DNA from: Candidatus Heimdallarchaeota archaeon
Lineage (GTDB): Archaea > Asgardarchaeota > Heimdallarchaeia > Heimdallarchaeales > Heimdallarchaeaceae
Assembly (NCBI GenBank): GCA_030603365.1
Contig: JAUVXV010000007.1
Span: 32,001-96,000, forward strand
Direction of reading: 5' to 3'
Length of the DNA stretch: 64,000 nt
The position numbers were made by a program, and so were the translations under genes. The notes under the pieces are model-generated. The model saw only the letters and a program-made list of their open reading frames with translations. It was not told where the DNA came from and searched no databases. Each line of letters begins with the position of its first letter. Positions within the stretch are counted from its first letter, which is position 1. Shown in pieces: positions 10,716 through 37,247 of this stretch.

Positions 10716-12047
10716 ATGAAAAAGCGTTATAGACATCTAATTGAAGCTGTTTCTATTTTAGCTTTTATTGGCTTAGTTGGGATTCTTCCTCTTTGGCTTT
10801 TATCTGAAAAACCTCAATCAATAGAGATTAACTCAGATAAAGATTTTCAGAAGTATAATTTTCCAGGAGATGGAAGTTTTGTTAATCCTTACATCATAGA
10901 AAACTTAACAATTTCAGAACAATTGAAACGAGGAATTTCAATTACTAATACAAATAAATATTTCATCATTAGAAATTGTTACATTTATGGAAATCTTCTC
11001 AATGGAATACGTTTAGATACAATTGCAGCGGGTACAGGGTTGATCTTTAATAATACCATCCAAGAACACAGCCAAGCAGGAATTCTAATTTCAACAAGCA
11101 ATAACATCTCAATTATTGACAATATTATTATTGAAAGTAAATACAAAATATGGTTGAATAACTCGGATTATTGTTGGATCTCAAACAATTATTTATTTGC
11201 ATATAGGCCTCCTTTAGGACAGTATGATATTTGGTACAGAGGGATATATTCAGTAAATTCGTTTTTTACTAGAATAGACTATAATACCATCCAGAATACC
11301 GCTTTTGGTATGTATATCTCTAATGGTGATAATAGTATTATATATGGGAATTTAATTCAATCAGCAACCCAAATCGGAATTTACTTATCCGAAAGCACAG
11401 ACTGTAATATCACATCTACTACTTGTTTAGATAGTTATGTTGATAGTTTTAGTCTACGTAATTCTAATTCCAACCTTATTCAGTATAGCTCTTCTCTTAA
11501 TGGTCTTCGAGGTTTGAAATTAAAGGAAAGTGATGAAAACACTATAAGTTATTGTATCTTCGATGAAAATGATATTGCAATCCTTCTAGAAGAAAACAGT
11601 CGATCTAATCTGATATCATTTACCGAATTTACAAGTAATTCTGAAGTAGCTATTCAATTGAATCAGGGAAGAGACAATATTATTCATCATAATTCCTTCA
11701 TAGATAATAATAATTCAGTAGAATACCAAGTAGAAGATCATAGTACCAATAATACGTGGTATGATGAAGTGAGCTCTGAAGGTAATTACTGGCATGGTTG
11801 GAACAGCTCTCTTCCTTATCAGATACCTGGCAGTGTAAACAGTTCTGATCCTTATCCATTAAGTGAGCCTATAGTTCTATTTCCATCTGAACTTATATCA
11901 AAACTTTATCCCAAAAAGACTTTTAATCTTGAAGAATTTTTCAGAGTTAGTGAATTATATCATGACAGATGGAAAAGTTCATCGTATATCAATGAAAGAT
12001 GTTGTTTTCAAAGCAGACCCAGAAAATCCTGCAGTATTAAAAATTAA
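10716..12047 (+). CDS. NosD/CASH right-handed parallel beta-helix protein, N-terminally membrane anchored
   Basis: I.I.SD.DF....FPGDGS...PYIIENL, repeated GI.L..S..N.I..N units, IHHNSFIDN...GNYW...D.YPL. The 3' end overlaps the next gene. Confidence 0.85.
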   Translation: MKKRYRHLIEAVSILAFIGLVGILPLWLLSEKPQSIEINSDKDFQKYNFPGDGSFVNPYIIENLTISEQLKRGISITNTNKYFIIRNCYIYGNLLNGIRLDTIAAGTGLIFNNTIQEHSQAGILISTSNNISIIDNIIIESKYKIWLNNSDYCWISNNYLFAYRPPLGQYDIWYRGIYSVNSFFTRIDYNTIQNTAFGMYISNGDNSIIYGNLIQSATQIGIYLSESTDCNITSTTCLDSYVDSFSLRNSNSNLIQYSSSLNGLRGLKLKESDENTISYCIFDENDIAILLEENSRSNLISFTEFTSNSEVAIQLNQGRDNIIHHNSFIDNNNSVEYQVEDHSTNNTWYDEVSSEGNYWHGWNSSLPYQIPGSVNSSDPYPLSEPIVLFPSELISKLYPKKTFNLEEFFRVSELYHDRWKSSSYINERCCFQSRPRKSCSIKN

Positions 12048-12864
12048 CTCTGGAGATACTGTTGTCTTTGAATGTAGAGATGCTTTCAATCAAACTATTC
12101 AAAAACCTGAAGACCTTCCTATCAATTTTGATATGGAAAAAATTAATCCCGCAACAGGTCCTGTGTATGTAAATGATGCTGAATCAGGAGATACCCTAGA
12201 GGTTCATATCCTAAAATTGGATGTAGCTGATCAAGGATCTTGTTGTATTATTCCGAACTTTGGTTTTCTCGCTAAAGAATTTACAGAGCCTTGGACAAGA
12301 ATAATTCCTATAAAAGATGGTTACGCTGAATTCAGTGATAAGGTAAAGATTCCAATTGATCCTTTTCCAGGTACTATAATTGTTGCTCCTTCTAAGGTAA
12401 CTCATAATCATGGAACTCTCATTCCCAAAGAATATGGTGGGAACATGGATTCAAGAGCTTGCACAGCTGGAACAATAGTCTATCTCCCAATATTTGTTGA
12501 AGGTGCATTGTTTGGTGTAGGAGATGTTCATGCGGTTCAAGGAGATGGAGAAGTGTGCGGAACAGCTGTAGAGATAGATGCAGATGTAACAATCAAATTA
12601 GTCGTAAATAAACAAAAGAAAATAAAGCGACCCCAATATGAAACTGACGAGTTCTTCATGACTACTGCTTGGGGAGAAACAACTGACGAAGCATGTAAGA
12701 TAGCTTTGAGAGATATGATTGAGTGGATTGTAGAAGAAAAGGGATTAACTCGAGAAGAAGCTTATGCTTTATGTAGCTGTGTAGTTGATATGAGAATCAG
12801 TCAACTAGTTGATATAACTCCTGGTGTTCGTGCCGTTATATCTAAAACCGTATTTGTTGATTAA
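11962..12864 (+). CDS. Acetamidase/formamidase family protein
   Basis: NPATGPVYV..AE.GDTLEVHI, PFPGTI, GGNMD, GDVHAVQGDGEVCGTAVE, EAY.LCS...D.RISQ.VD. ATG 11962 preferred to the track TTG at 11929. Confidence 0.93.
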   Translation: MTDGKVHRISMKDVVFKADPENPAVLKINSGDTVVFECRDAFNQTIQKPEDLPINFDMEKINPATGPVYVNDAESGDTLEVHILKLDVADQGSCCIIPNFGFLAKEFTEPWTRIIPIKDGYAEFSDKVKIPIDPFPGTIIVAPSKVTHNHGTLIPKEYGGNMDSRACTAGTIVYLPIFVEGALFGVGDVHAVQGDGEVCGTAVEIDADVTIKLVVNKQKKIKRPQYETDEFFMTTAWGETTDEACKIALRDMIEWIVEEKGLTREEAYALCSCVVDMRISQLVDITPGVRAVISKTVFVD

Positions 12865-12875
12865 GAGCTAAGATT

Positions 12876-13931
12876 ATGTCTAATTTAAAAGTGGAATTAT
12901 CTGAAGATTTAGTAAAAGATGTGTTTACTAATTACTATAATTTAGGTGAGATAACCTATGTTACAGATCTTGAATCAGGGCATGAGAGTGATAATGTTAA
13001 AGTAACCACTTCTACTGGTGATTATGTTCTCAAACTTCTTTTTCATGAACTAGATATTATTGAAGACAAAATGAATCTAAGTGAAATACTATCTTCATTT
13101 GGTGTTAAAATTCCCATTCCAATACGAACTAAAACAAATGGATGGGTTGTAAACTATGATGAGAACAATCTACTTGTTGTTCACACATTTATACCTGGTG
13201 AGTCTATCTATAGAGATGATAAGGAAGAAATGTATAGCAATATGAAATGGTTTGGAAAACAATTTGGAATATTTCATTACAATTCTAAAAAAATACCTCT
13301 GGAAATAATACAACAACGAGTAAAAAACAAAAAACTATATGAGCTGTCTCTCCCTCCAGGGGAATGGATAGGCGAACAATATAACAATTCAGAAACTATT
13401 TTACCGGAACATGAAAAAAACAATAGAATATTAGAGCTTTTTGAAGAATTCATTCAAAAATCTCAAGAGTTGAAATTAGCTAACTTATCAACAGGTATAA
13501 TCCATGGTGATCTCTTTCCAGGAAACTTCTTGATGGAAAATGGCAAACTTACAGGTATTATTGATTTTGGAGGAGCTAATTTCTACTACTTGATGGCTGA
13601 TTTGGGAACATGGGTGTTGTATACTACTCTTTATGATCTTGAGGTGAAAGAGAGATTCCAAGATTTCATAATTCCATATCTTGAGTATTCCAAAGTCTCT
13701 GTTGATGAGCTAAAAACTATAACTTTTTTCTTTAGAGCAAGAGCTTTTGTTCAATATTTCTACTTTGCTTATCGGATTAATAATAATATCACACAAGGAA
13801 ATTTTGAGGAAATTGGAGAAGACAATTGGAAGGGTTTTACAGATGGGATTTTTCTTGTAGAAGCTGCAACTGATTTAGTTGACAATTACTTCTATGATGT
13901 AGCAATTCAAGCTATAAATGAACACCAATGA
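12876..13931 (+). CDS. APH / homoserine kinase type II-like phosphotransferase
   Basis: G.E..N glycine loop, YVLK, Brenner motif IIHGDLFPGN, IIDFG. Confidence 0.88.
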   Translation: MSNLKVELSEDLVKDVFTNYYNLGEITYVTDLESGHESDNVKVTTSTGDYVLKLLFHELDIIEDKMNLSEILSSFGVKIPIPIRTKTNGWVVNYDENNLLVVHTFIPGESIYRDDKEEMYSNMKWFGKQFGIFHYNSKKIPLEIIQQRVKNKKLYELSLPPGEWIGEQYNNSETILPEHEKNNRILELFEEFIQKSQELKLANLSTGIIHGDLFPGNFLMENGKLTGIIDFGGANFYYLMADLGTWVLYTTLYDLEVKERFQDFIIPYLEYSKVSVDELKTITFFFRARAFVQYFYFAYRINNNITQGNFEEIGEDNWKGFTDGIFLVEAATDLVDNYFYDVAIQAINEHQ

Positions 13932-28906: not shown

Positions 28907-31900
28907 ATGAATAATAAGTTCAAAGACTTATTTGTGCTTCTGTTATGTTTATCATCAATATACTATTTCAACATAATAAATGAACCTCTTAACAATGAAA
29001 ATTATAACATTAATTTAGAAGACCAATTATGTAATTTACCAATTGCTGAAAATCCAGAAGATGATTTTTGGATAGATAATCCTTACAGCATAAAACAAAC
29101 ACTTGAACCTGGAGATTTTCAACTTAGAGGTTTTTTCGTCCATGATTCCTTTGTCACTTTGAATCAAGATGGAACAGTCTTTGTGCTGGAACGATTTGAA
29201 GATATGTATGAAGATGGAAGTGGAGCTGTTAAAAAGAAACTAGAAATAGATAATACTAAGGTTTCTACCTGGCCATCCCAAAATGATACATACAAATATC
29301 TAAATGAAGAAATTTCCCCATTCACAAACTCCACAATGTTTACTTCTATATTTAATGCCGATTCTCTCATTACAGGAGAAGTCCATGTTCTTACACATCT
29401 TAAATCTGGCGGATATGATCCTCAAATAAACGTTACTCTTAAAGTGAGTCTAGCTTTTTTTAATCCAATAGATAGCAATACAACAGAAATTGCATCACTA
29501 GAGACAGCGATAGAAGTAGGTTTAAGCGAACTCAACCAAACAGTTTTCAATCTTGAGCTTAACAACACTTATTTCATACCTGCTGGGTATAGATTAAAAC
29601 TATCATTTAAGGCAAAAGTTTCTGATACTACTTTAAGAGCTGATGTTGAAATACTAACAAGTGAGAGAGGAGACTTTCCCTATACATGGGAAATTGTTGA
29701 TGGTATATATTCTAACAATTTCACATTCCTTGATTATAACAAAGTATTAGGTATGCAAATACGATATATGGATGTAGAGTATCCTGACATCTTTATTTCT
29801 GGAGTAACTAATGATTCGTTTTATTATGAAGTAATGAATATAACAATTGGTACAACTGGATCTATAAGGAATTCCTATAACTGGGACAATGGTTCTACAA
29901 TCTTTTTTGGAACTTCATCTATAACAATTCTTTTACCTGATACTGAAGGATGGCATTATCTTTATGTTACTGCAAAAGATGAATATGACAATTTAAGAGG
30001 TGTGCTCTATAAGTTTGGATATGATCCTACTTTTGCAGATTTAATATTAAATAGCCCAACTAATGGTTCTATTATTTCTTTAGATTCAATAATAGATTTC
30101 TCAGCTTCTGGATTACATAATTTTCGATATGAATGGGATAACAATGGAACAATAACTGAATTACTAACCCCATATGATATTTCTTCTATACCTGTTTCAG
30201 ATGGCTTACATATTTTATCAATCTATATCAATGATACTTTTGAAGAAACGAAAGTGAATTTTGCATTCTTTGTTGATAATAGCGGCCCACTCATAGAATT
30301 ATATAATGTCATAGATGGTTCAACACAACCAGCAGGAAAAGTTATTGAAGTTAATATTACAGATATACGACCTTTATCATATGTCCAATATAACTGGGAT
30401 GACAAATCAGATCTTGCTTGGACACCAAGTGAAGGAACTATTTTCAAAACCTATCTTCCAGAATCATTGGGGATACACAATTTAACAATTTTTGCAAATG
30501 ATTCATATGGATTTACAAGTGCGGCATATTTCTCCTTTGATGTTGATCCAGATCAAATTCTTATTGAGCTTAGAACAATGAAAGACAATTCGTATTATTA
30601 TGGTGGAGATATAGTAGAAGTAACAGTTTCAGGGATAAATGGATCGATCTTCTTCTCATGGGATGGAGGACCAGAAATAAATGGAACTGATTTTTGGGAT
30701 TCAGTAAATAGTATACTAACATTGAATGGCACGAATGCTTTGTCTATAGATTATACGTATGTGCATTATCTGAATATAACATCTTTTGATAAAGATGATG
30801 TTAAATATAGTGTTGTTTTTACGTTTACTTTAGATCAAGAAAACCCAACAGAAGAGGGTTCAAATGTTAGTGATTTAAATGGAACTAGACATAAAAGTTC
30901 AGAGAGTCTAGTGTTTCTTTTTGATGACAATTTTACTACTGATAGCAACCTAATCATATTAGTGTCCATAGATGGAAATACAAATCAAACTCTATCTTCC
31001 CAATATACTCTAGACTTATATTTGTTAACTGAAGGTGAATATAACTTAACGATTTATGTTTCTGATATAGCAGGCAATTATTTCATCATAAGTATCATAA
31101 TATTCGTAGATGATAGTGCCCCAGTAGTTGATTCACTAGATATTGATAACTTTGCTGATTTAATAGATGGTTCGAAATATGTTCCTGCTAACATTCATGT
31201 AGAAATAAGTTTAACTGATGAAGATCCATTAATTTATAGCTATTATTCTTGGAATAATTCCGCTTTCATTCTTTTTGTAGATAGTTTTGATCTAGTTTCT
31301 GATGAAGGATTATCAACTTTAGTTATCAAAGTAAATGATTCAGCAGGCAACTTCTATATAGCTTTCAGTCAAAATGTAATTGTTGATATCGAAGCTCCAA
31401 TAATTAATTTTGTTTTTCCATATAACTATTCTATCATTAATTCAGATACAAATCTGAATTTCCTTGCCCAAGACATAAAGGATCAAACAATTGAAACTTT
31501 AAAATATACTTGGGACATCTTGCCTGGTGCAGATTTCTATATTGGAGATCCAGAATTCACCATTAATGCTTTAGAGTTTTATAATCACGATTCTATTGCA
31601 ATATTATCTATTCATGCTGAAGATATTGTAGGGAACATCAAACTATATAATTTTAGTTTTACAATTGATAAAGAAGCACCAATAGCAGAGATTCAAATTT
31701 ATGATTATCTTTCCGATAGCTATATACCTATTTTTGATGCTAACAACAGCTATGTCTCAGAAAGTAGCGATATTATAATCAATGATGTTTCAAGTGATAT
31801 AAAATCGTTTATCTACATCTGGGATGAGAATGGAACAGAATTTGTATTAGAGTCTCCATGGGTATTTCCAGCAATAACTTTAACTGGAACTCACTCTATC

Positions 31901-33286
31901 AAATTTATTCTTCTGGATACATCAGGTGAGGGAACATCTCCAAACATCAATATCTTCTACTATAATTTCACAATAAGGATTAAGGGTAATCTGCTTTTGC
32001 ATGAATTCTCTCAAAGCATCACTTATGGTGATGATTTTCTGCTTAATATCACCCTAAATGATGATCTAAACAGTACATCTCAAGAAATAACGGAAATAAT
32101 AATCAATGGGCAGAATCTTGATACTGAAAGTTTTGTCCAACAAATATATTCAGCAATTGATAACTCTGTTCTAATTATAATTTCTGCTCAAAACATAAAT
32201 ATCTATCCTACGACAAAAGGCAGTCTTTCATTACAAATCTATGCTGCTTCTGCTTACTATTTCGATGATTTGAATAGCTCAGATGAGATAAATCTTGAGG
32301 TTAACCCTATTATTGTTAATCTACAAATTTATGTTTCAAATTATTCAATCATTGAAAATAATAATGTAATATTTGATGTTTATCTTTCTGAACCAAATGG
32401 GGATCCATTGGTTAATGCTAGAATTTTAATTTATATTGAAATCACTTTTGTAGATGTAATAGATACTTCGTTGGTTTATGCACTTTCATATAATGATTCA
32501 TATTTCACAAATGAAGCAGGATATGTAGGAATACCTTTTGAGATGACTGAAGACATCGATTTTATAACAGCAAGAATCGTTTATGAAGGTGATGATACTC
32601 ACGATTTTATTGAACAAATAATAGCAGATCCAATCTATACTATCCCTCCACTAGGTCTTCCAAAATATATTATCTATATTATTATTGCTAGCTCTATTGG
32701 TCTAGCTGTTATTGCTTCTTATATTGTATATCGTATTGTGAGAAAGAAATCTATTGAGAAAGCTATGGCTGAAATAGATGAACAAACTATTTTACAGAAT
32801 TTAGATAGAATTAATCCTGGAGTAGTTTTATGTATTTTTGAACAAACAAGAGGTGCCATGCCCTTAGTTAGAGAAGATTCTTTAGAAACAGAATACTTAT
32901 CTAGAATGACTATAGGCGTTGATAATTTCTTATTGAAGATTTCTGATCAAGCTTATTCGAGTTTGGGTTTTGGTGAGGCTGTTCATGAAAGTAGAAGAAT
33001 TGGAACTATAATCCTCCCAAAAGAGAAAATGGCTGGGTTTATTCATGGTCTCCAACTTGAAATCGAATCAGCAAGAGGTGGACTTGAGAACTTAGTATTG
33101 GTAGTTCTTGTAGATGCCGATCATGATGAAATGATTTTGGCTAACAAACATCTTCTATATGATCTAATTGATGTCTTAAGAGAAATGCTACACGAGGAGA
33201 AAGCATTAAATGAAATTAGAGCACAGCTTGTAGAAATTCGAAAACAAACTGTTAGAATAATATTAGCTGCTCTTGAATTAGAATAA
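28907..33286 (+). CDS. Large single-pass surface protein: Ig-like repeat ectodomain, TM, cytoplasmic longin/uDENN-like domain
   Basis: Signal anchor, repeated Y.WD...G.H.L.I.A.D..GN......F..D...P units, many N-x-S/T sites, TM YIIYIIIASSIGLAVIASYIVY, then about 180 aa with GVVLCIFEQTRGAMP...FIHGLQLEIESARGG. Confidence 0.82.
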   Translation: MNNKFKDLFVLLLCLSSIYYFNIINEPLNNENYNINLEDQLCNLPIAENPEDDFWIDNPYSIKQTLEPGDFQLRGFFVHDSFVTLNQDGTVFVLERFEDMYEDGSGAVKKKLEIDNTKVSTWPSQNDTYKYLNEEISPFTNSTMFTSIFNADSLITGEVHVLTHLKSGGYDPQINVTLKVSLAFFNPIDSNTTEIASLETAIEVGLSELNQTVFNLELNNTYFIPAGYRLKLSFKAKVSDTTLRADVEILTSERGDFPYTWEIVDGIYSNNFTFLDYNKVLGMQIRYMDVEYPDIFISGVTNDSFYYEVMNITIGTTGSIRNSYNWDNGSTIFFGTSSITILLPDTEGWHYLYVTAKDEYDNLRGVLYKFGYDPTFADLILNSPTNGSIISLDSIIDFSASGLHNFRYEWDNNGTITELLTPYDISSIPVSDGLHILSIYINDTFEETKVNFAFFVDNSGPLIELYNVIDGSTQPAGKVIEVNITDIRPLSYVQYNWDDKSDLAWTPSEGTIFKTYLPESLGIHNLTIFANDSYGFTSAAYFSFDVDPDQILIELRTMKDNSYYYGGDIVEVTVSGINGSIFFSWDGGPEINGTDFWDSVNSILTLNGTNALSIDYTYVHYLNITSFDKDDVKYSVVFTFTLDQENPTEEGSNVSDLNGTRHKSSESLVFLFDDNFTTDSNLIILVSIDGNTNQTLSSQYTLDLYLLTEGEYNLTIYVSDIAGNYFIISIIIFVDDSAPVVDSLDIDNFADLIDGSKYVPANIHVEISLTDEDPLIYSYYSWNNSAFILFVDSFDLVSDEGLSTLVIKVNDSAGNFYIAFSQNVIVDIEAPIINFVFPYNYSIINSDTNLNFLAQDIKDQTIETLKYTWDILPGADFYIGDPEFTINALEFYNHDSIAILSIHAEDIVGNIKLYNFSFTIDKEAPIAEIQIYDYLSDSYIPIFDANNSYVSESSDIIINDVSSDIKSFIYIWDENGTEFVLESPWVFPAITLTGTHSIKFILLDTSGEGTSPNINIFYYNFTIRIKGNLLLHEFSQSITYGDDFLLNITLNDDLNSTSQEITEIIINGQNLDTESFVQQIYSAIDNSVLIIISAQNINIYPTTKGSLSLQIYAASAYYFDDLNSSDEINLEVNPIIVNLQIYVSNYSIIENNNVIFDVYLSEPNGDPLVNARILIYIEITFVDVIDTSLVYALSYNDSYFTNEAGYVGIPFEMTEDIDFITARIVYEGDDTHDFIEQIIADPIYTIPPLGLPKYIIYIIIASSIGLAVIASYIVYRIVRKKSIEKAMAEIDEQTILQNLDRINPGVVLCIFEQTRGAMPLVREDSLETEYLSRMTIGVDNFLLKISDQAYSSLGFGEAVHESRRIGTIILPKEKMAGFIHGLQLEIESARGGLENLVLVVLVDADHDEMILANKHLLYDLIDVLREMLHEEKALNEIRAQLVEIRKQTVRIILAALELE

Positions 33287-33524
33287 AATTAGGTTAAGTA
33301 CTCTATATTTGTCTTCCAATATTTTGTTATATATGCAATAACACACAGTTTACACCGTCCTGAATATGGAAAAGAAACGCAGATAAGAAAAGTGGATAAC
33401 ATCCAACAAGTAGAATAAAATGAATAAAGTTAAAGAATTCGAAACAACGGGAATTTTTGCCAAATGTGACACATTTATTAACATGTATGAGTTAATAATA
33501 CATGAGTGATGTAACCTGACCGAT

Positions 33525-33944
33525 ATGACCAACGAGAAAAAGAAAGTAATTCGTTCAAAAGCGAGGCGTTTTGCGCTAGATCTATGGGATGCTCCGCTTG
33601 ATTCAGGTCTAGGTCTTTATCAATCAACTATCGGTGATTTATATGAAGGGTCATCACGAATCAGAATGTGCCTTAAGTGTGGTAAAATCAATTCTATTCA
33701 AGATCTAAAAAAAGAAACTCATTCTTGTGCCCTTTCCTTTAAAAGCTTTCCAGTCTTAGTTACCACAAGTTGGAAATTACTAGCAGACTTCTTTTTAACT
33801 TCTAAATATGTTGAAGCATTACAACAGCTCGGTGTTGAATTGGGTGTTCGTGAGAAAGCAACTATTACTGTTAAGGCTGAACTCAAAGTACCTATATCTA
33901 TTACTGAACAAGAATTAGCTGATGCATCTGTATCTAGTAGGTAG
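33525..33944 (+). CDS. Hypothetical protein with possible Zn site (CLKC...HSC)
   Basis: 139-aa ORF with plausible composition; CxxC plus HxC. Confidence 0.6.
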   Translation: MTNEKKKVIRSKARRFALDLWDAPLDSGLGLYQSTIGDLYEGSSRIRMCLKCGKINSIQDLKKETHSCALSFKSFPVLVTTSWKLLADFFLTSKYVEALQQLGVELGVREKATITVKAELKVPISITEQELADASVSSR

Positions 33945-34136
33945 AATTTAAATCAATTTCTTACTATTTTTTAGACTGTTTTTTGTAAAATTTTACTAAA
34001 AATATCTTTACCTTCTTGAAATTCTTCCGACATCTTCGGCCATATTTACCTCTATTTATTCTACAACTAACAATACCCGTATGTGTATTAAAACGCACTC
34101 TCGCACCAGATTAACCCTTATTTCCACCAAATAAAG

Positions 34137-34208
34137 ATGTCTGATTGTTTCAGACAATTCTTTCTTCTAAAAATGACTTTATAAAGGATGTCGGAGTTAT
34201 TCAGACAT
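34137..34208 (+). promoter_or_regulatory. TATA box bracketed by two palindromic operator-like sites
   Basis: ATGTCTGA-ttgtt-TCAGACAA (34137-34157), TTTATAAA (34178-34185), ATGTCGGA-gttat-TCAGACAT (34188-34208). Confidence 0.7.
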
Positions 34209-34235
34209 AGGAAAAAAAACCGAGGTAGAAAAAAA

Positions 34236-34415
34236 ATGGAAAACGAAATACGAAAACTGCTTGACCGCGATTACAGAAAACTCTGCGAAGATCTAAATCA
34301 ACTGTATAAGGTTCTTGCAACCAGATACCAGGAAAACCATAGCTATCTTCAACCAAAGATAGCATCTTCTTCCAGGTTTTCAGAACTAGAAATGAAAAGA
34401 AAATATTCAAGGTGA
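34236..34415 (+). CDS. Small helical protein (59 aa), first of a microprotein operon
   Basis: GAGGT SD before ATG 34236; MENEIRKLLDRDYRKLCEDLNQLYKVLATRY... Confidence 0.6.
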   Translation: MENEIRKLLDRDYRKLCEDLNQLYKVLATRYQENHSYLQPKIASSSRFSELEMKRKYSR

Positions 34416-34421
34416 ACAAAA

Positions 34422-34571
34422 ATGTCCCAACAAGAACTCTCCAGAACACTGGACCAAGAAATCAAGGCACTCCAAAAGGAGTTAAACGAGTTGAAAAAAG
34501 CTCGTCGCGCCCTTCGAGCAAAAGTACGCTCACAAAAGTTGTTAGTTCAGCGCATCCCCCTTGTGGGATGA
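34422..34571 (+). CDS. Small basic coiled-coil protein (49 aa)
   Basis: AGGTGA SD overlapping the previous stop; MSQQELSRTLDQEIKALQKELNELKKARRALRAKVRSQKLLVQRIPLVG with heptad leucines. Below the ORF-track cutoff. Confidence 0.65.
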   Translation: MSQQELSRTLDQEIKALQKELNELKKARRALRAKVRSQKLLVQRIPLVG

Positions 34572-34622
34572 ACTGAACAATCAATCCCTTTCATCAAAAT
34601 TGAAACGGAGGTGTAAAAGAAA

Positions 34623-34775
34623 ATGTTAAATCTTCCAAACTTTATCAACAAGCTAAAAGTAGAACAACCAAATGTCTATCTGTTTAGAATACTAAGAATA
34701 GTATTACCCCTTTTAGTAGCTGGAATAGTAGCAGTAGTTGGTTTAGCTCCTGAATTTGCCAGAATAGTTATTTAA
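34623..34775 (+). CDS. Small single-TM peptide (50 aa)
   Basis: GGAGGTG SD; MLNLPNFINKLKVEQPNVYLFRILRIVLPLLVAGIVAVVGLAPEFARIVI. Confidence 0.65.
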   Translation: MLNLPNFINKLKVEQPNVYLFRILRIVLPLLVAGIVAVVGLAPEFARIVI

Positions 34776-34781
34776 GAGTTA

Positions 34782-34802
34782 GAAAAGTGTCCCCCACTTT
34801 TC
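34782..34802 (+). terminator. Hairpin followed by a pyrimidine/T-rich tract after the microprotein operon
   Basis: GAAAAGTG-tcccc-CACTTTTC then ctctccctttattatttt. Confidence 0.55.
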
Positions 34803-34848
34803 CTCTCCCTTTATTATTTTACGATTATCATCTCATCTAAGAACTCAC

Positions 34849-35095
34849 GCTGTTTGTATCTTGCTAAAACAGACAAACCAGCAGAGCTCACTATCTGCAA
34901 GGGATCAGGAAACAACAAACTCCTTAGAAAAGAGCTTGTGTGTGCCTTCCTAGTTTCCTGATCCTTCCCTCTTCTTTAAACAACTAATTTTTATTTGAAT
35001 GTTGGAATAATTTCTAAAGCAACTGTTTCCATCTTCGAATTTGTTCTTCCCAGTTGTTTCTCGGAAGGTTGATAATTCCAAAATCTAGTTGTTTA
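34849..35095. ncRNA. Candidate structured RNA or hairpin element (unassigned)
   Basis: 12-bp stem GGATCAGGAAAC (34902-13)/GTTTCCTGATCC (34953-64); second nested hairpin TAAACAACTA (34977-86)/TAGTTGTTTA (35086-95), TTGGAAT/ATTCCAA, CAACTG/CAGTTG; smaller GCAGA/TCTGC hairpin. Confidence 0.4.
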
Positions 35096-35186
35096 TTCAT
35101 ATCTCACTTATTTCTAAGAAATTTATTAGCTTATTCTAGGGATGTTGGGCAATACTATTATAAACATCAAAAACAATTACTAGTTT

Positions 35187-37247
35187 GTGAATATTGAAAG
35201 ATTAATAGATCATTCTGAAATAACAGAAGCTCTCAAGCAAATAGAGGAACAGCTAGAGAATGATAAACTTACTGAAGAAGAGCAATTAGATCTACTAATT
35301 TTTAAGAGCGATGCTACATGTTTGAGTGGAAAATGTGAAAAAGGATTAGAACAGTCTATCGATTTAGTTAATAAAACACGAAGAATTGGCAACTCGTTGC
35401 TTGAAATAAAAGCTTCACTCCAAAGAGCAACTATATTGAACAGATTAAGAAGATATGATGAATCTAAAACTATTTTGGAGGAGACATTTTTACTTTTTCA
35501 GAATCTAGCAAACAAAGATGAGGAGGAATATAAAAAGAACTTAGCTAAATGGTATTCACTGAATGGTGTATACTTACATCTTCAGAAACAGTATAATGAT
35601 GGTTTAGAAGAATATGAAGAAAGTCTTCAAATACGAAGGGAAATTGATTATAAACATGGCATTGCTGAGATTTTAGTTGCTAAAGGACATTCTTATCTGA
35701 AAAAATTGGATTTTGAAAGATATCGAGAGCTTAATGAAGAAGCATATGAAATTTTCAAATCAGAAGACAATAAGAGGATGATGGGTGTTGCTTTGATAAA
35801 TATAGGAAATTCTCACATCTATAAAGGAGATATGCACACTGCAATCAAAATAAATCTAGAAGTATTAGAAATTCGAAAACAAATGGGAAAACAAACAAAT
35901 CTGTTTTATACTAATGATCGATTAGGATACCAGTACTGGAGGATTGGAGATCTAGATAAAGCATTTGAGCATTGGAAGGAAGGTTATGCTTTAACTAAGG
36001 ACATGAAGGATGAAAGAGGTATTTATAGTAGTTTTAAGAGCTTTGGGCTATATTACTATGAGTTGGGAAATCTCGAAAAGTCATTAGAGTATCAATATAA
36101 AGCACTAGAAAAGGCAAGAGAGATAAATATTAAACGTGATGTAACTTACGCTATTGCTGAAAGATTAACAGTAATTGGATATATTTATCTAAGAATGGGT
36201 GAATATGAAAAAGCTCTGGCAAGTATTGAGAAAGGAAAAACCAACATACCTGAGAAATATCATGATTTTATAAGAGCTGAGAACACTAAAGCTTTTGGTA
36301 TTTATTATACAACAGTTGGAGATTTTGAGAAGGCAGAAAAATTTCTTAATGAAGCTATGAAATTTTATGAAACAAGCCAACGACCTTATGATATCTATGA
36401 AGTATTACATTATCTAGGAATAGTATTTCATCAGAGAAATGAAACTAACAAGGCAATTTCTGTCTTGAAAAGAAGTTTAGAAATGAGTCTTCAAATGCAA
36501 GATAAAGTAACAATAGCAACAAATCTTCTAGAATTAACAAAGATATATACTCAGCAGTTCGATCTAGAGAATGCTAGATTTTACCAATTACAACTCTCTG
36601 AATTAAGCTCTAGTATTCAGTTAGCAACTATAAGTCTAAACAGTAAGATTGCTGAAGCAACAGTCCTGAAATTAAGTGAAAACCAGAGAGATAGAATAAA
36701 ATCAGAGACCATTTTTGAACAGATTATAGAAGAAAAAGCTTTATGGCATTCTCAGAAAATTTATGCAATACTATGTCTTTGTGAACTCTTTATTGAAGAC
36801 TTCTCTCATGAGGAGGACAAAGGAATTCTACTCAGAATTAAAGAACTCGTTGAGAAACTTCTCACCATCTCAAAAAGCCAGAATTCACCATCCTTAACGT
36901 GTGAAACATATTGGTTGCAATCTCAATTATCGATGTTCGATTTTGATTCTAAAACAGCAAGGGAATTATTAACAAATGCCTTAGAACTAGCACAAAAAAG
37001 AGGTTTAACCCTTCTAGAAGATAAATATAAATCTAAACTTGAAACATTAAGTAGTTTTGTCGCAAGCTGGAAAAACTTCACTTCTAAAACTGCTTCAGTT
37101 TCTGAAATAATAGAACAAACAGAACTAGATAGTACCATAAACGGAATGAAGAGAAATGGATCTCTATTCATGCAAGAACTACACAAACATACAAGCAATA
37201 GCAAAAAGATTTTTTCGACGGAATTAGAATTGAAACAGAGTCATTAA
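35187..37247 (+). CDS. TPR-array protein (paralog lacking the C-terminal longin-like domain)
   Basis: Numerous TPR units; shared block LTCETYWLQSQLS...ARELLTNALELAQKRGL. Confidence 0.82.
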   Translation: MNIERLIDHSEITEALKQIEEQLENDKLTEEEQLDLLIFKSDATCLSGKCEKGLEQSIDLVNKTRRIGNSLLEIKASLQRATILNRLRRYDESKTILEETFLLFQNLANKDEEEYKKNLAKWYSLNGVYLHLQKQYNDGLEEYEESLQIRREIDYKHGIAEILVAKGHSYLKKLDFERYRELNEEAYEIFKSEDNKRMMGVALINIGNSHIYKGDMHTAIKINLEVLEIRKQMGKQTNLFYTNDRLGYQYWRIGDLDKAFEHWKEGYALTKDMKDERGIYSSFKSFGLYYYELGNLEKSLEYQYKALEKAREINIKRDVTYAIAERLTVIGYIYLRMGEYEKALASIEKGKTNIPEKYHDFIRAENTKAFGIYYTTVGDFEKAEKFLNEAMKFYETSQRPYDIYEVLHYLGIVFHQRNETNKAISVLKRSLEMSLQMQDKVTIATNLLELTKIYTQQFDLENARFYQLQLSELSSSIQLATISLNSKIAEATVLKLSENQRDRIKSETIFEQIIEEKALWHSQKIYAILCLCELFIEDFSHEEDKGILLRIKELVEKLLTISKSQNSPSLTCETYWLQSQLSMFDFDSKTARELLTNALELAQKRGLTLLEDKYKSKLETLSSFVASWKNFTSKTASVSEIIEQTELDSTINGMKRNGSLFMQELHKHTSNSKKIFSTELELKQSH

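Follow-up and report, generated by a model that had tools for sequence, protein, structure and literature searches.

A Putative Lineage-Specific Regulatory Module of an Orphan Zinc Protein and Microproteins in Heimdallarchaeota

Features of the Locus

The window analysed here, a stretch of 64,000 nt of Candidatus Heimdallarchaeota archaeon (assembly GCA_030603365.1, contig JAUVXV010000007.1, positions 32,001 to 96,000), harbours a gene for an orphan zinc protein (termed Z139, of the family Z), a promoter with a TATA box bracketed by two palindromes, three genes for microproteins and several RNA signals, with the gene for a tetratricopeptide repeat (TPR) protein as a neighbour. We consider it probable that this locus is one copy of a regulatory module specific to a lineage of the Heimdall group, consisting of Z, the bracketed promoter, the microproteins and the RNA signals.

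A previous reading of the bare letters of the window (the original prediction) had proposed a repressed peptide operon of three small open reading frames (ORFs) under twin palindromic operators. The anatomy that it described is indeed there: two 21-bp palindromes with the TATA box in between are 51 bp apart (start to start), the proximal one beginning 2 bp past the TATA box and lying between it and the expected start site; three ORFs of 59, 49 and 50 amino acids (aa), each led by a Shine–Dalgarno (SD) sequence, follow at the predicted positions, and a conserved hairpin (34782–34802) closes the unit. To these we add a hairpin over the stop codon of ORF2, the zinc-protein gene upstream, a non-coding element at 34843–34966 and the full 21-bp extent of the operator. 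The features are listed below, with positions counted from the first letter of the window.

33474–33503, plus strand: promoter of the Z139 gene, TATA-like TTTATTAA followed by the palindrome ATGTATGAGTTAATAATACAT (33483–33503); the same layout precedes orthologous Z genes
33525–33944, plus strand: Z139 gene, orphan C2HC zinc-ribbon/helical-bundle protein of 139 aa, candidate repressor
34026–34050, plus strand: upstream element, operator half-site TCCGACAT followed by palindrome-like GGCCATATTTACC; kept in 9/9 type-A promoters (see below)
34137–34157, no strand assigned: distal operator ATGTCTGATTGTTTCAGACAA, core TGTCTGA-N5-TCAGACA at 34138–34156, ending in ACAA
34179–34186, plus strand: TATA box TTTATAAA, position kept in orthologues
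34188–34208, no strand assigned: proximal operator ATGTCGGAGTTATTCAGACAT, core TGTCGGA-N5-TCAGACA at 34189–34207
34236–34415, plus strand: ORF1, helical microprotein of 59 aa, SD GAGGT at 34222–34226
34422–34571, plus strand: ORF2, single-helix protein of 49 aa, SD AGGTGA at 34410–34415, containing the stop codon of ORF1
34545–34578, plus strand: two-tier RNA hairpin over the ORF2 stop codon, from folding energy and covariation
34623–34775, plus strand: ORF3, membrane peptide of 50 aa, SD GGAGGTG at 34607–34613
34782–34802, plus strand: terminator-like hairpin GAAAAGTG-TCCCC-CACTTTTC, then a T-rich tract
34843–34966, plus strand: conserved non-coding RNA-like element with a 12-bp stem, GGATCAGGAAAC/GTTTCCTGATCC
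35187–37247, plus strand: TPR protein of 686 aa, neighbour of the module and candidate partner

An alternative start at 34188, which would yield an ORF of 75 aa, was considered and rejected: it is located inside the operator and before the expected start site, and the paralogous copy of the module on contig 7 (C7) of the same genome has a stop codon there.

The Operators Are Tied to Z-Family Genes

In archaeal promoters, the site between the TATA box and the start is where repressors block the recruitment of the polymerase, and several characterised archaeal repressors (MDR1, LrpA, Phr, TrmB-type) act just downstream of the TATA box. The proximal operator (34188–34208) occupies this very region, covering approximately −21 to −1 relative to the expected start. 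The core TGTCNGA-N5-TCNGACA, for which the original prediction had proposed a genome-wide scan, matches twice in the window (0.10 expected); across the whole 3.65-Mb assembly it yields this pair and one other, on contig 7 and likewise spaced by 51 bp, and nothing else, while the reversed pattern used as a control has no match. The full operator spans 21 bp and reads ATGT-N13-ACAT.

Related genomes contain the module in two types of cassette. In type A, Z is followed by ORF2 and then ORF3; in type B, Z is divergent from ORF1–ORF2, which are followed by the genes for an 87-aa protein (P87) and for a transmembrane (TM) peptide. In the nine type-A promoters that were aligned, the TATA box is directly followed by ATGTCG[GC]A-N5-..[GT]ACAT in every species, with the second operator copy 51 bp upstream (approximately 80 bp in one clade). 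The 12 type-B promoters share the layout of TATA box and operator, with operators of three classes:

Class I: ATGTCGGA..TCC[GT]ACAT, distal copy 41 bp upstream
Class II: ATGTCAT../..ATTACAT
Class III: TTACTGCA..TGCAGTAA

In all, the arrangement of TATA box, abutting palindrome and an upstream copy at approximately 41, 51 or 80 bp is kept in 21 aligned promoters. The inner operator bases vary by cassette class, and the half-sites of a class are shared by the Z and the microprotein promoters of the same cassette.

Behind their own TATA boxes, the Z genes carry palindromes of the same class or of a related one, such as ATGTA[TG]GA..TACAT before the Z139 orthologues and TGTA[AG]ACAT-ATGT[TC]TACA before solo Z genes. 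An exact ATGT-N13-ACAT occurs within 110 nt upstream of 22 of the 42 Z-family genes and of only 2 of 2,341 control genes of this genome, a very large contrast, although the Z genes are drawn from related genomes and are non-independent samples. Moreover, solo Z genes that have no microprotein genes nearby also carry ATGT-N13-ACAT sites. The conservation of the element at 34026–34050 is local only: the pattern GGYMA-N3-TKRCC is not enriched over the genome (20 occurrences versus 15–23 in shuffles).

The Zinc Protein

An alignment of 35 Z proteins shows C49, C52, H66 and C68 to be invariant, along with G28, Y32, T81, W83 and F90. In the AlphaFold (AF2) model of Z139, the predicted local distance difference test score (pLDDT) exceeds 84 for residues 1–100; the predicted fold has two long helices at its N-terminus, then a zinc ribbon and two short ones, after which comes a disordered acidic tail. 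Among the folds of the PDB, the best Foldseek hit had an E-value of 2.6, and an exhaustive VIA-align comparison reached at best a Z score of 5.0, on helical designs and bundles, which is noise for helical models. Pfam, NCBIfam, PADLOC and PHROGs returned nothing meaningful for Z, ORF1–3 or P87, and the ESM Atlas gave no informative neighbour.

The family is present in 24/24 genomes of the genus (g1) and in 2/2 of its sister genus (g2), whereas 35 further genomes of the class yielded no member. Among 1.84 billion representative proteins, a profile search produced 23 matches only, and the sole name that the family has at its source is “hypothetical protein” of Candidatus Heimdallarchaeota archaeon. 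Genomes contain between one and nine copies, which are clustered.

Several Z paralogues adjoin genes for surface proteins that have a membrane anchor and repeats resembling a parallel beta-helix (L005:3010–3993, minus strand; L036:10538–11854 and 12047–13231; L070:5345–6328). These are the second recurrent neighbour of Z besides the TPR genes.

The Microproteins

The conservation of the ORFs and of the operator in relatives, on which the original prediction had staked itself, is found for both. Following its proposal, we searched relatives with tblastn and estimated the ratios of nonsynonymous to synonymous substitution (dN/dS). Against its closest relative, the copy on contig 7, ORF1 has a dN/dS of 0.21, more distant pairs being saturated; in pairwise comparisons with the window copy, ORF2 gave 0.12–0.48 and ORF3 0.23–0.34. 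These values identify ORF1–3 as genes under purifying selection.

The tblastn searches of the Z loci found homologues of ORF1 adjoining Z genes in 12 loci. The N-terminus of ORF1 is paralogous to that of ORF2, with the shared motif E-[IL]-x-[KR]-L-L-D-x-E, and the two are distant paralogues. They probably pair as a coiled coil.

The 22 full ORF2 sequences that were aligned are all 48–49 aa long and have SDs of the GGTGA type. E5, L10, L17, E20, L21, R29 and the C-terminal Gly are invariant, and LKRARR is nearly so. This hexapeptide opens an Arg-rich segment, LKRARRxRRAKARS, that is the same across operator classes and is, therefore, unlikely to set operator specificity. The original prediction of a basic helical protein and a single-span membrane peptide held good. 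AF2 models ORF2 as one helix (residues 3–44, pLDDT 87) with a loose tail (residues 45–49); its hydrophobic residues are spaced 3 and 4 apart (L10, I14, L17, L21, L24, L31), and 12 of the 49 residues are Lys or Arg. ORF3 has one hydrophobic span, residues 23–41, preceded by a basic N-terminal part of 22 residues and followed by nine residues, and the TM peptides of different cassettes are paralogous to it.

A profile of ORF2 gave full-length matches only in genus g1, in 20/24 genomes, and none outside the family in 53 genomes. A word-indexed search of 5.8 billion protein clusters returned solely the ORF2 of this genome, which suggests that gene callers mostly miss ORF2. A literature search on Asgard microproteins found nothing on a module of Z and microproteins.

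A 46-aa relative of the N-terminal coiled coil of ORF2, without the terminal Gly, is encoded elsewhere in this genome (G000 C14:311364–311474, minus strand; locus L037:3347–3487). It heads an operon with genes for coiled-coil proteins of 81 and 445 aa, the larger of which ends in an ArsR-like segment that looks like a winged helix-turn-helix (wHTH). This short form has orthologues in most genomes of both genera.

RNA Signals and the Non-Coding Tail

The hairpin at the end of ORF2 consists of an outer stem (34545–34550 with 34573–34578) and an inner stem (34553–34558 with 34565–34570). The TGA stop codon (34569–34571) reaches from the end of the inner stem into the internal loop. The minimum free energy (MFE) is −18.9 kcal/mol in the window; over 23 homologues (42-nt windows), it averages −14.3 kcal/mol, versus −3.5 ± 2.6 kcal/mol for 1,500 stop-codon windows of other long ORFs in this genome, and 20 of the 23 are at or under the first percentile of these controls. 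In the ungapped alignment, 81% of the cells pair versus 66% in shuffles, and sliding the structure by one to three columns lowers the pairing to 23–52%. Two-sided, compensatory changes occur in 8 of the 11 pairs; the 45 compensatory cells compare with 15 ± 3.8 in shuffles, a count reached by 0/500 shuffles.

The outer stem covaries, and the inner stem is conserved in sequence (AYCCY...RGGRU). The GGR Gly codon of ORF2 forms the 3′ side of the inner stem, so that the invariance of the terminal Gly may reflect a constraint on the RNA, on the protein or on both. In six type-B loci, a run of 7–8 T comes after the hairpin, with the SD of the following gene immediately behind it, which suggests attenuation or coupling. 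The hairpin of the window has no T-run after it, and in three class III sequences the hairpin is weak or different. Two features of the module appear to be new: this covarying hairpin in which the ORF2 stop codon is embedded, and the recurrence of TPR genes by the Z/microprotein loci.

The terminator-like hairpin after ORF3 is kept in nine loci, with one-sided changes from A-U to G-U that fit the plus strand only. A further small hairpin (34590–34613; TTTCA/TGAAA plus CC/GG) partly covers the GGAGG of the ORF3 SD, and is present in the MFE folds of the contig-7 copy and of two orthologues; the translation of ORF3 may depend on its unfolding.

Downstream of the operon, the element at 34843–34966 is 88% identical between its two paralogous copies, versus 49% just beyond. 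The contig-7 copy (G000 C7:89098–89228) precedes a gene for a 47-aa TM peptide, which is missing from the window copy. BLAST detected the element in 4/25 genomes of the genus, and diverged forms occur in four more loci; in other species it adjoins type-A cassettes. It possibly has its own TATA-like box (TTTATTATTTT, 34811–34821). RNAalifold predicted only two helices from nine sequences, with one compensatory pair; covariation is weak. We searched for possible antisense targets in this genome with blastn-short and obtained matches at chance level only. Rfam gave no match at gathering scores anywhere in the window, and E = 0.13, at chance level, in 33900–35250. The element appears to be conserved and RNA-like, and is not proven to be a structured RNA.

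Duplication and Spread of the Module

A blastn search with 33001–36000 against the genome matched 33449–34238 and 34398–34976 to C7:87915–89238, at 74–81% identity, and ORF1 with its leader (34205–34337) to a different site, C7:86794–86927. The contig-7 twin comprises, in order, a 142-aa paralogue of Z139, the same twin operators, ORF2 (78% identical to that of the window), ORF3 (72%), the terminator hairpin and the non-coding tail; ORF1 is absent. The neighbouring cassette on contig 7 has a divergent Z139 paralogue, a different repeat pair behind the TATA box, homologues of ORF1 (51% identical) and ORF2, P87 and another TM peptide. Judged by these matches, the window copy (33449–34976) is a duplicate of the contig-7 module with an ORF1 gene from another class of cassette inserted behind the promoter. 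The borders of the duplicated block show no target-site duplication.

Throughout the genus, Z remains syntenic with ORF1, ORF2 and ORF3, and the module was seen in the two sister genera only. Housekeeping genes, for an aminopeptidase and a DEAD-box helicase, are interspersed in the main cluster, and other species share this gene order. On either side of the window copy, the 1,459-aa surface receptor (28907–33286) and the TPR protein have no close orthologues in 24 other species of the genus, which suggests that the module landed in a fast-changing region.

TPR Genes Near the Module

According to the original prediction, the peptides could be ligands of the TPR protein encoded at 35187, in the manner of RRNPP systems. 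The part of this idea that stands is the neighbourhood, as TPR genes are recurrently linked to the module in relatives; the defining features of RRNPP systems are not found. Of approximately 127 TPR matches, at least 19 have a Z match no more than 2.6 kb away, where roughly one would be expected by chance (a rough estimate), and TPR genes occur beside Z genes or microprotein operons in at least 12 species. The order Z/ORF1–ORF2–P87–TM–TPR is seen in six species (among them G017, G007, G004, G022 and G011), with the TPR gene approximately 100 nt after the TM-peptide gene, and Z/ORF1–ORF2–TM–TPR in a seventh (G001), as in the window. Solo Z–TPR pairs, divergent or tandem, occur in G002, G004, G011, G012 and G021, and the sister genus has one Z–TPR neighbourhood. 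A TPR gene is missing beside the contig-7 twin and beside its orthologues in G016, G020 and G023, and the type-B TPR gene has its own terminator and promoter, without a palindrome. At the level of the family, the linkage is real; it does not imply membership of the RRNPP group.

In the TPR protein of the window, Pfam recognises TPR_12 and TPR_MalT only, and its best match elsewhere is 31% identical. Matches to NCBIfam models (FxSxx-COOH TPR, HaaT) were dismissed, being far under the cut-offs and reflecting generic TPR similarity. No helix-turn-helix (HTH), phosphatase or other effector domain was found by Pfam, NCBIfam or PADLOC on this protein or on four Z-linked TPR proteins, a divergent domain being possible. 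ORF1 and ORF2 are charged helices without a hydrophobic N-terminus and show no secretion signal, judged by sequence character.

Other Z-linked TPR proteins, of 708–770 aa (L063:3702–6014; L070:6424–8550 on G007 contig 11), end in an unannotated domain of approximately 130 aa (..IMLFILNTSDTILFTENF..FQEYTYL..FSYIFEGKAY..). It is Roadblock/longin-like by eye, has no Pfam match and is lacking in the TPR protein of the window.

Interpretation of the Module and Rival Explanations

Conservation and selection are evident for the ORFs, operators and hairpins of the locus, and the type of operator is linked with Z-family genes; the roles of Z as binder and as repressor, and those of the microproteins, are inferred. 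A dimer of Z would bind the proximal palindrome, which takes up the stretch from the TATA box to the transcription start; it may bind the upstream copy cooperatively and, once bound, would block assembly of the transcription machinery. Through the related palindrome behind its own TATA box, Z could also regulate itself. Through attenuation, stability or reinitiation, the hairpin at the ORF2 stop probably makes what happens to the downstream message depend on ORF2 translation. Of the peptide operon with operators at a repressor position, as originally predicted, the operon is real, conserved and equipped with strong SDs, and the interpretation as a whole is supported in part.

Z139 is the likeliest candidate for the binder and repressor at the palindromes. 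It is the most economical choice, since solo Z genes carry the sites and the basic segment of ORF2 stays constant across operator classes. Several observations weigh against this assignment. The structure searches with Foldseek and VIA-align found no recognisable DNA-binding fold in Z. The operator of Z139 itself (ATGTATGA..ATACAT) and that of the operon (ATGTCGGA..CAGACAT) differ in their inner bases, so that one protein must accept both, or else another Z paralogue acts at the operon. Orthologous promoters share sequence by descent, and the conservation of operators within a Z clade does not identify the binder; the non-independence of the sampled Z genes belongs here, too. Finally, the loose form of ATGT-N13-ACAT, with at least 3 of 4 inner positions palindromic, is not enriched over the genome (10 versus 5–11 in shuffles), and the informative operator tests are only those on exact, class-specific sites and the promoter-linked count.

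The recurrent neighbourhood of TPR genes invites another reading, which we regard as rather unlikely: that the microproteins and the TPR protein form a peptide-sensing or partner-switch circuit in which contact of the TPR protein with a short linear segment controls Z. That segment could be the acidic tail of Z, the basic N-terminal part of the TM peptide or the loose tail of ORF2 (..P-x-x-G-COOH), which varies by clade and has Gly at its end throughout. Binding of free C-terminal peptides is common among TPR domains (Hop with EEVD, PEX5 with PTS1), and AF2 leaves residues 45–49 of ORF2 loose; TPR genes recur after the TM-peptide genes of type-B-like loci and by solo Z genes, in numbers that by a rough estimate are well over chance, and with one case in the sister genus. 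Nevertheless, the contig-7 paralogue and three orthologues do without a TPR neighbour, the TPR protein of the window has no close orthologue, and the TPR proteins have no HTH or effector domain that was found; the type-B TPR gene comes with a terminator and promoter of its own and lacks the palindrome, and the invariance of the terminal Gly need not be a feature of the protein, its codon being also part of an RNA stem. The lack of signal peptides on ORF1 and ORF2 makes secreted signalling of the RRNPP type unlikely. A wider version of this circuit, to which we give still less credence, would be a self-contained switch, made of parts without described relatives and of an origin independent of bacterial RRNPP systems, with Z as its DNA-binding output, the TPR protein as a sensor reading the ORF2 tail or the cytosolic arm of the TM peptide, and the stop-codon hairpin coupling translation to what is downstream. 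Type II toxin–antitoxin systems typically regulate themselves through paired palindromes that overlie the promoter of an operon of small genes, and ORF1/ORF2 might bind the palindromes as the antitoxin of a toxin ORF3, with Z unrelated or accessory. The strongly basic, helical character of ORF2 and the small, hydrophobic ORF3, similar to many membrane toxins, would agree with such an autoregulation. It is, however, improbable in the light of the solo Z genes, which carry the same type of palindrome behind the TATA box without any ORF1 or ORF2. Furthermore, the basic segment of ORF2 does not change between cassettes with differing operators, type-B cassettes insert P87 between ORF2 and the TM peptide, half-site centres approximately 16 bp apart do not suit the geometry of a basic-arm zipper, and ORF1–3 have no toxin or antitoxin match above noise in Pfam, NCBIfam or PADLOC.

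The Arg-rich segment of ORF2 could serve a different purpose, if ORF2 were an RNA binder that recognises the hairpin at its own stop codon and controls read-through downstream, by analogy with lambda N and boxB. The segment is constant, the inner stem is conserved in sequence above a covarying outer stem, and six type-B loci have the succession of hairpin, T-run and next SD; on the other side, the proposal is pure inference, the hairpins of three class III sequences are weak or different, and no T-run stands behind that of the window. We give it a very small chance; it concerns ORF2 alone and is compatible with the regulatory module governed by Z. That the locus is the remnant of a virus, plasmid or other mobile element is scarcely credible, even though a duplicate of the module has reached a new site in this genome, Z has one to nine matches per species and the surrounding region is poorly conserved between species. 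No protein of the locus has a PHROG match; PADLOC and PHROG gave no viral, defence or toxin–antitoxin signature; the cassettes contain no integrase, capsid or replication gene; and the block has no target-site duplication at its borders. Moreover, the main cluster keeps a conserved gene order with housekeeping genes in between, and the Z family is present in 24/24 genomes of the genus.

We know of hardly any exploration of Asgard gene regulation, and most lineage-specific Asgard genes are, to our knowledge, without an assigned role. The Z module offers a complete and compact test case: it comprises sequence-specific regulators of a putative new family, with sites defined at 21 bp, three microproteins that mostly escape gene callers, an unusual hairpin around a stop codon and a recurrent TPR link, and each component is small enough to express, footprint and model. 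Should Z bind the palindromes, its fold would be new among DNA-binding folds, and a functional TPR link would amount to the first peptide–TPR circuit described in archaea.

Comparison with Known Systems

The regulatory layout, in which an operator occupies the interval from the TATA box to the start, belongs to a known kind; the proteins of the module have no described relatives. A parallel to Z among small archaeal zinc proteins is Brz, a haloarchaeal protein of the small CPxCG-type zinc-finger family with essential Cys and His residues, which activates its targets; how this family recognises DNA is unknown, and no operator has been defined for Brz (PMC2253796). Like Brz, Z is a small archaeal zinc protein of the CxxCG type encoded directly beside its presumed target genes, and its invariant C-L-K-C-G ... 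H-x-C resembles CPxCG, a likeness at the level of the motif only. Z differs in its larger size (approximately 140 aa) and in the bundle of four helices that surrounds its zinc ribbon, and Pfam and NCBIfam detected no sequence similarity between Z and the Brz family.

RRNPP and arbitrium systems (Rap/NprR/PlcR/PrgX, AimR–AimP) resemble the module in that a TPR gene adjoins genes for peptides of approximately 50 aa, the C-terminal residues of which differ between variants. In contrast, the searches of the TPR protein here yielded neither an HTH nor a phosphatase domain, ORF1 and ORF2 lack a signal sequence, the peptides are helical, conserved proteins and not pro-peptides, and the linkage to TPR genes is not universal. 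With type II toxin–antitoxin systems, the module shares a compact operon of small genes, paired palindromes in the promoter and a small membrane peptide, but it has no known toxin or antitoxin domain, and the same operators stand before Z genes without such partners.

A heptad-type helix beside a strongly basic segment recalls bZIP proteins. In ORF2, however, the basic segment (residues 25–37) is C-terminal to the heptads (L10, I14, L17, L21, L24), and the half-sites of the operators are too far apart for the arms of a zipper. The likeness to lambda N–boxB consists of an Arg-rich helix encoded beside a conserved small hairpin, with a T-run after it in some loci; the hairpin here is, unusually, inside the 3′ end of the gene itself and contains its stop codon.

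The closest counterparts of the layout are the archaeal repressors of the MDR1/LrpA/Phr/TrmB type. The candidate Z differs from these in having no wHTH, ribbon-helix-helix or other known DNA-binding fold and in being an orphan family limited to two genera. It shares with them a palindrome that abuts the TATA box and covers the expected start; the second copy upstream suggests cooperative binding, and the gene of the candidate regulator carries a similar site, implying self-regulation.

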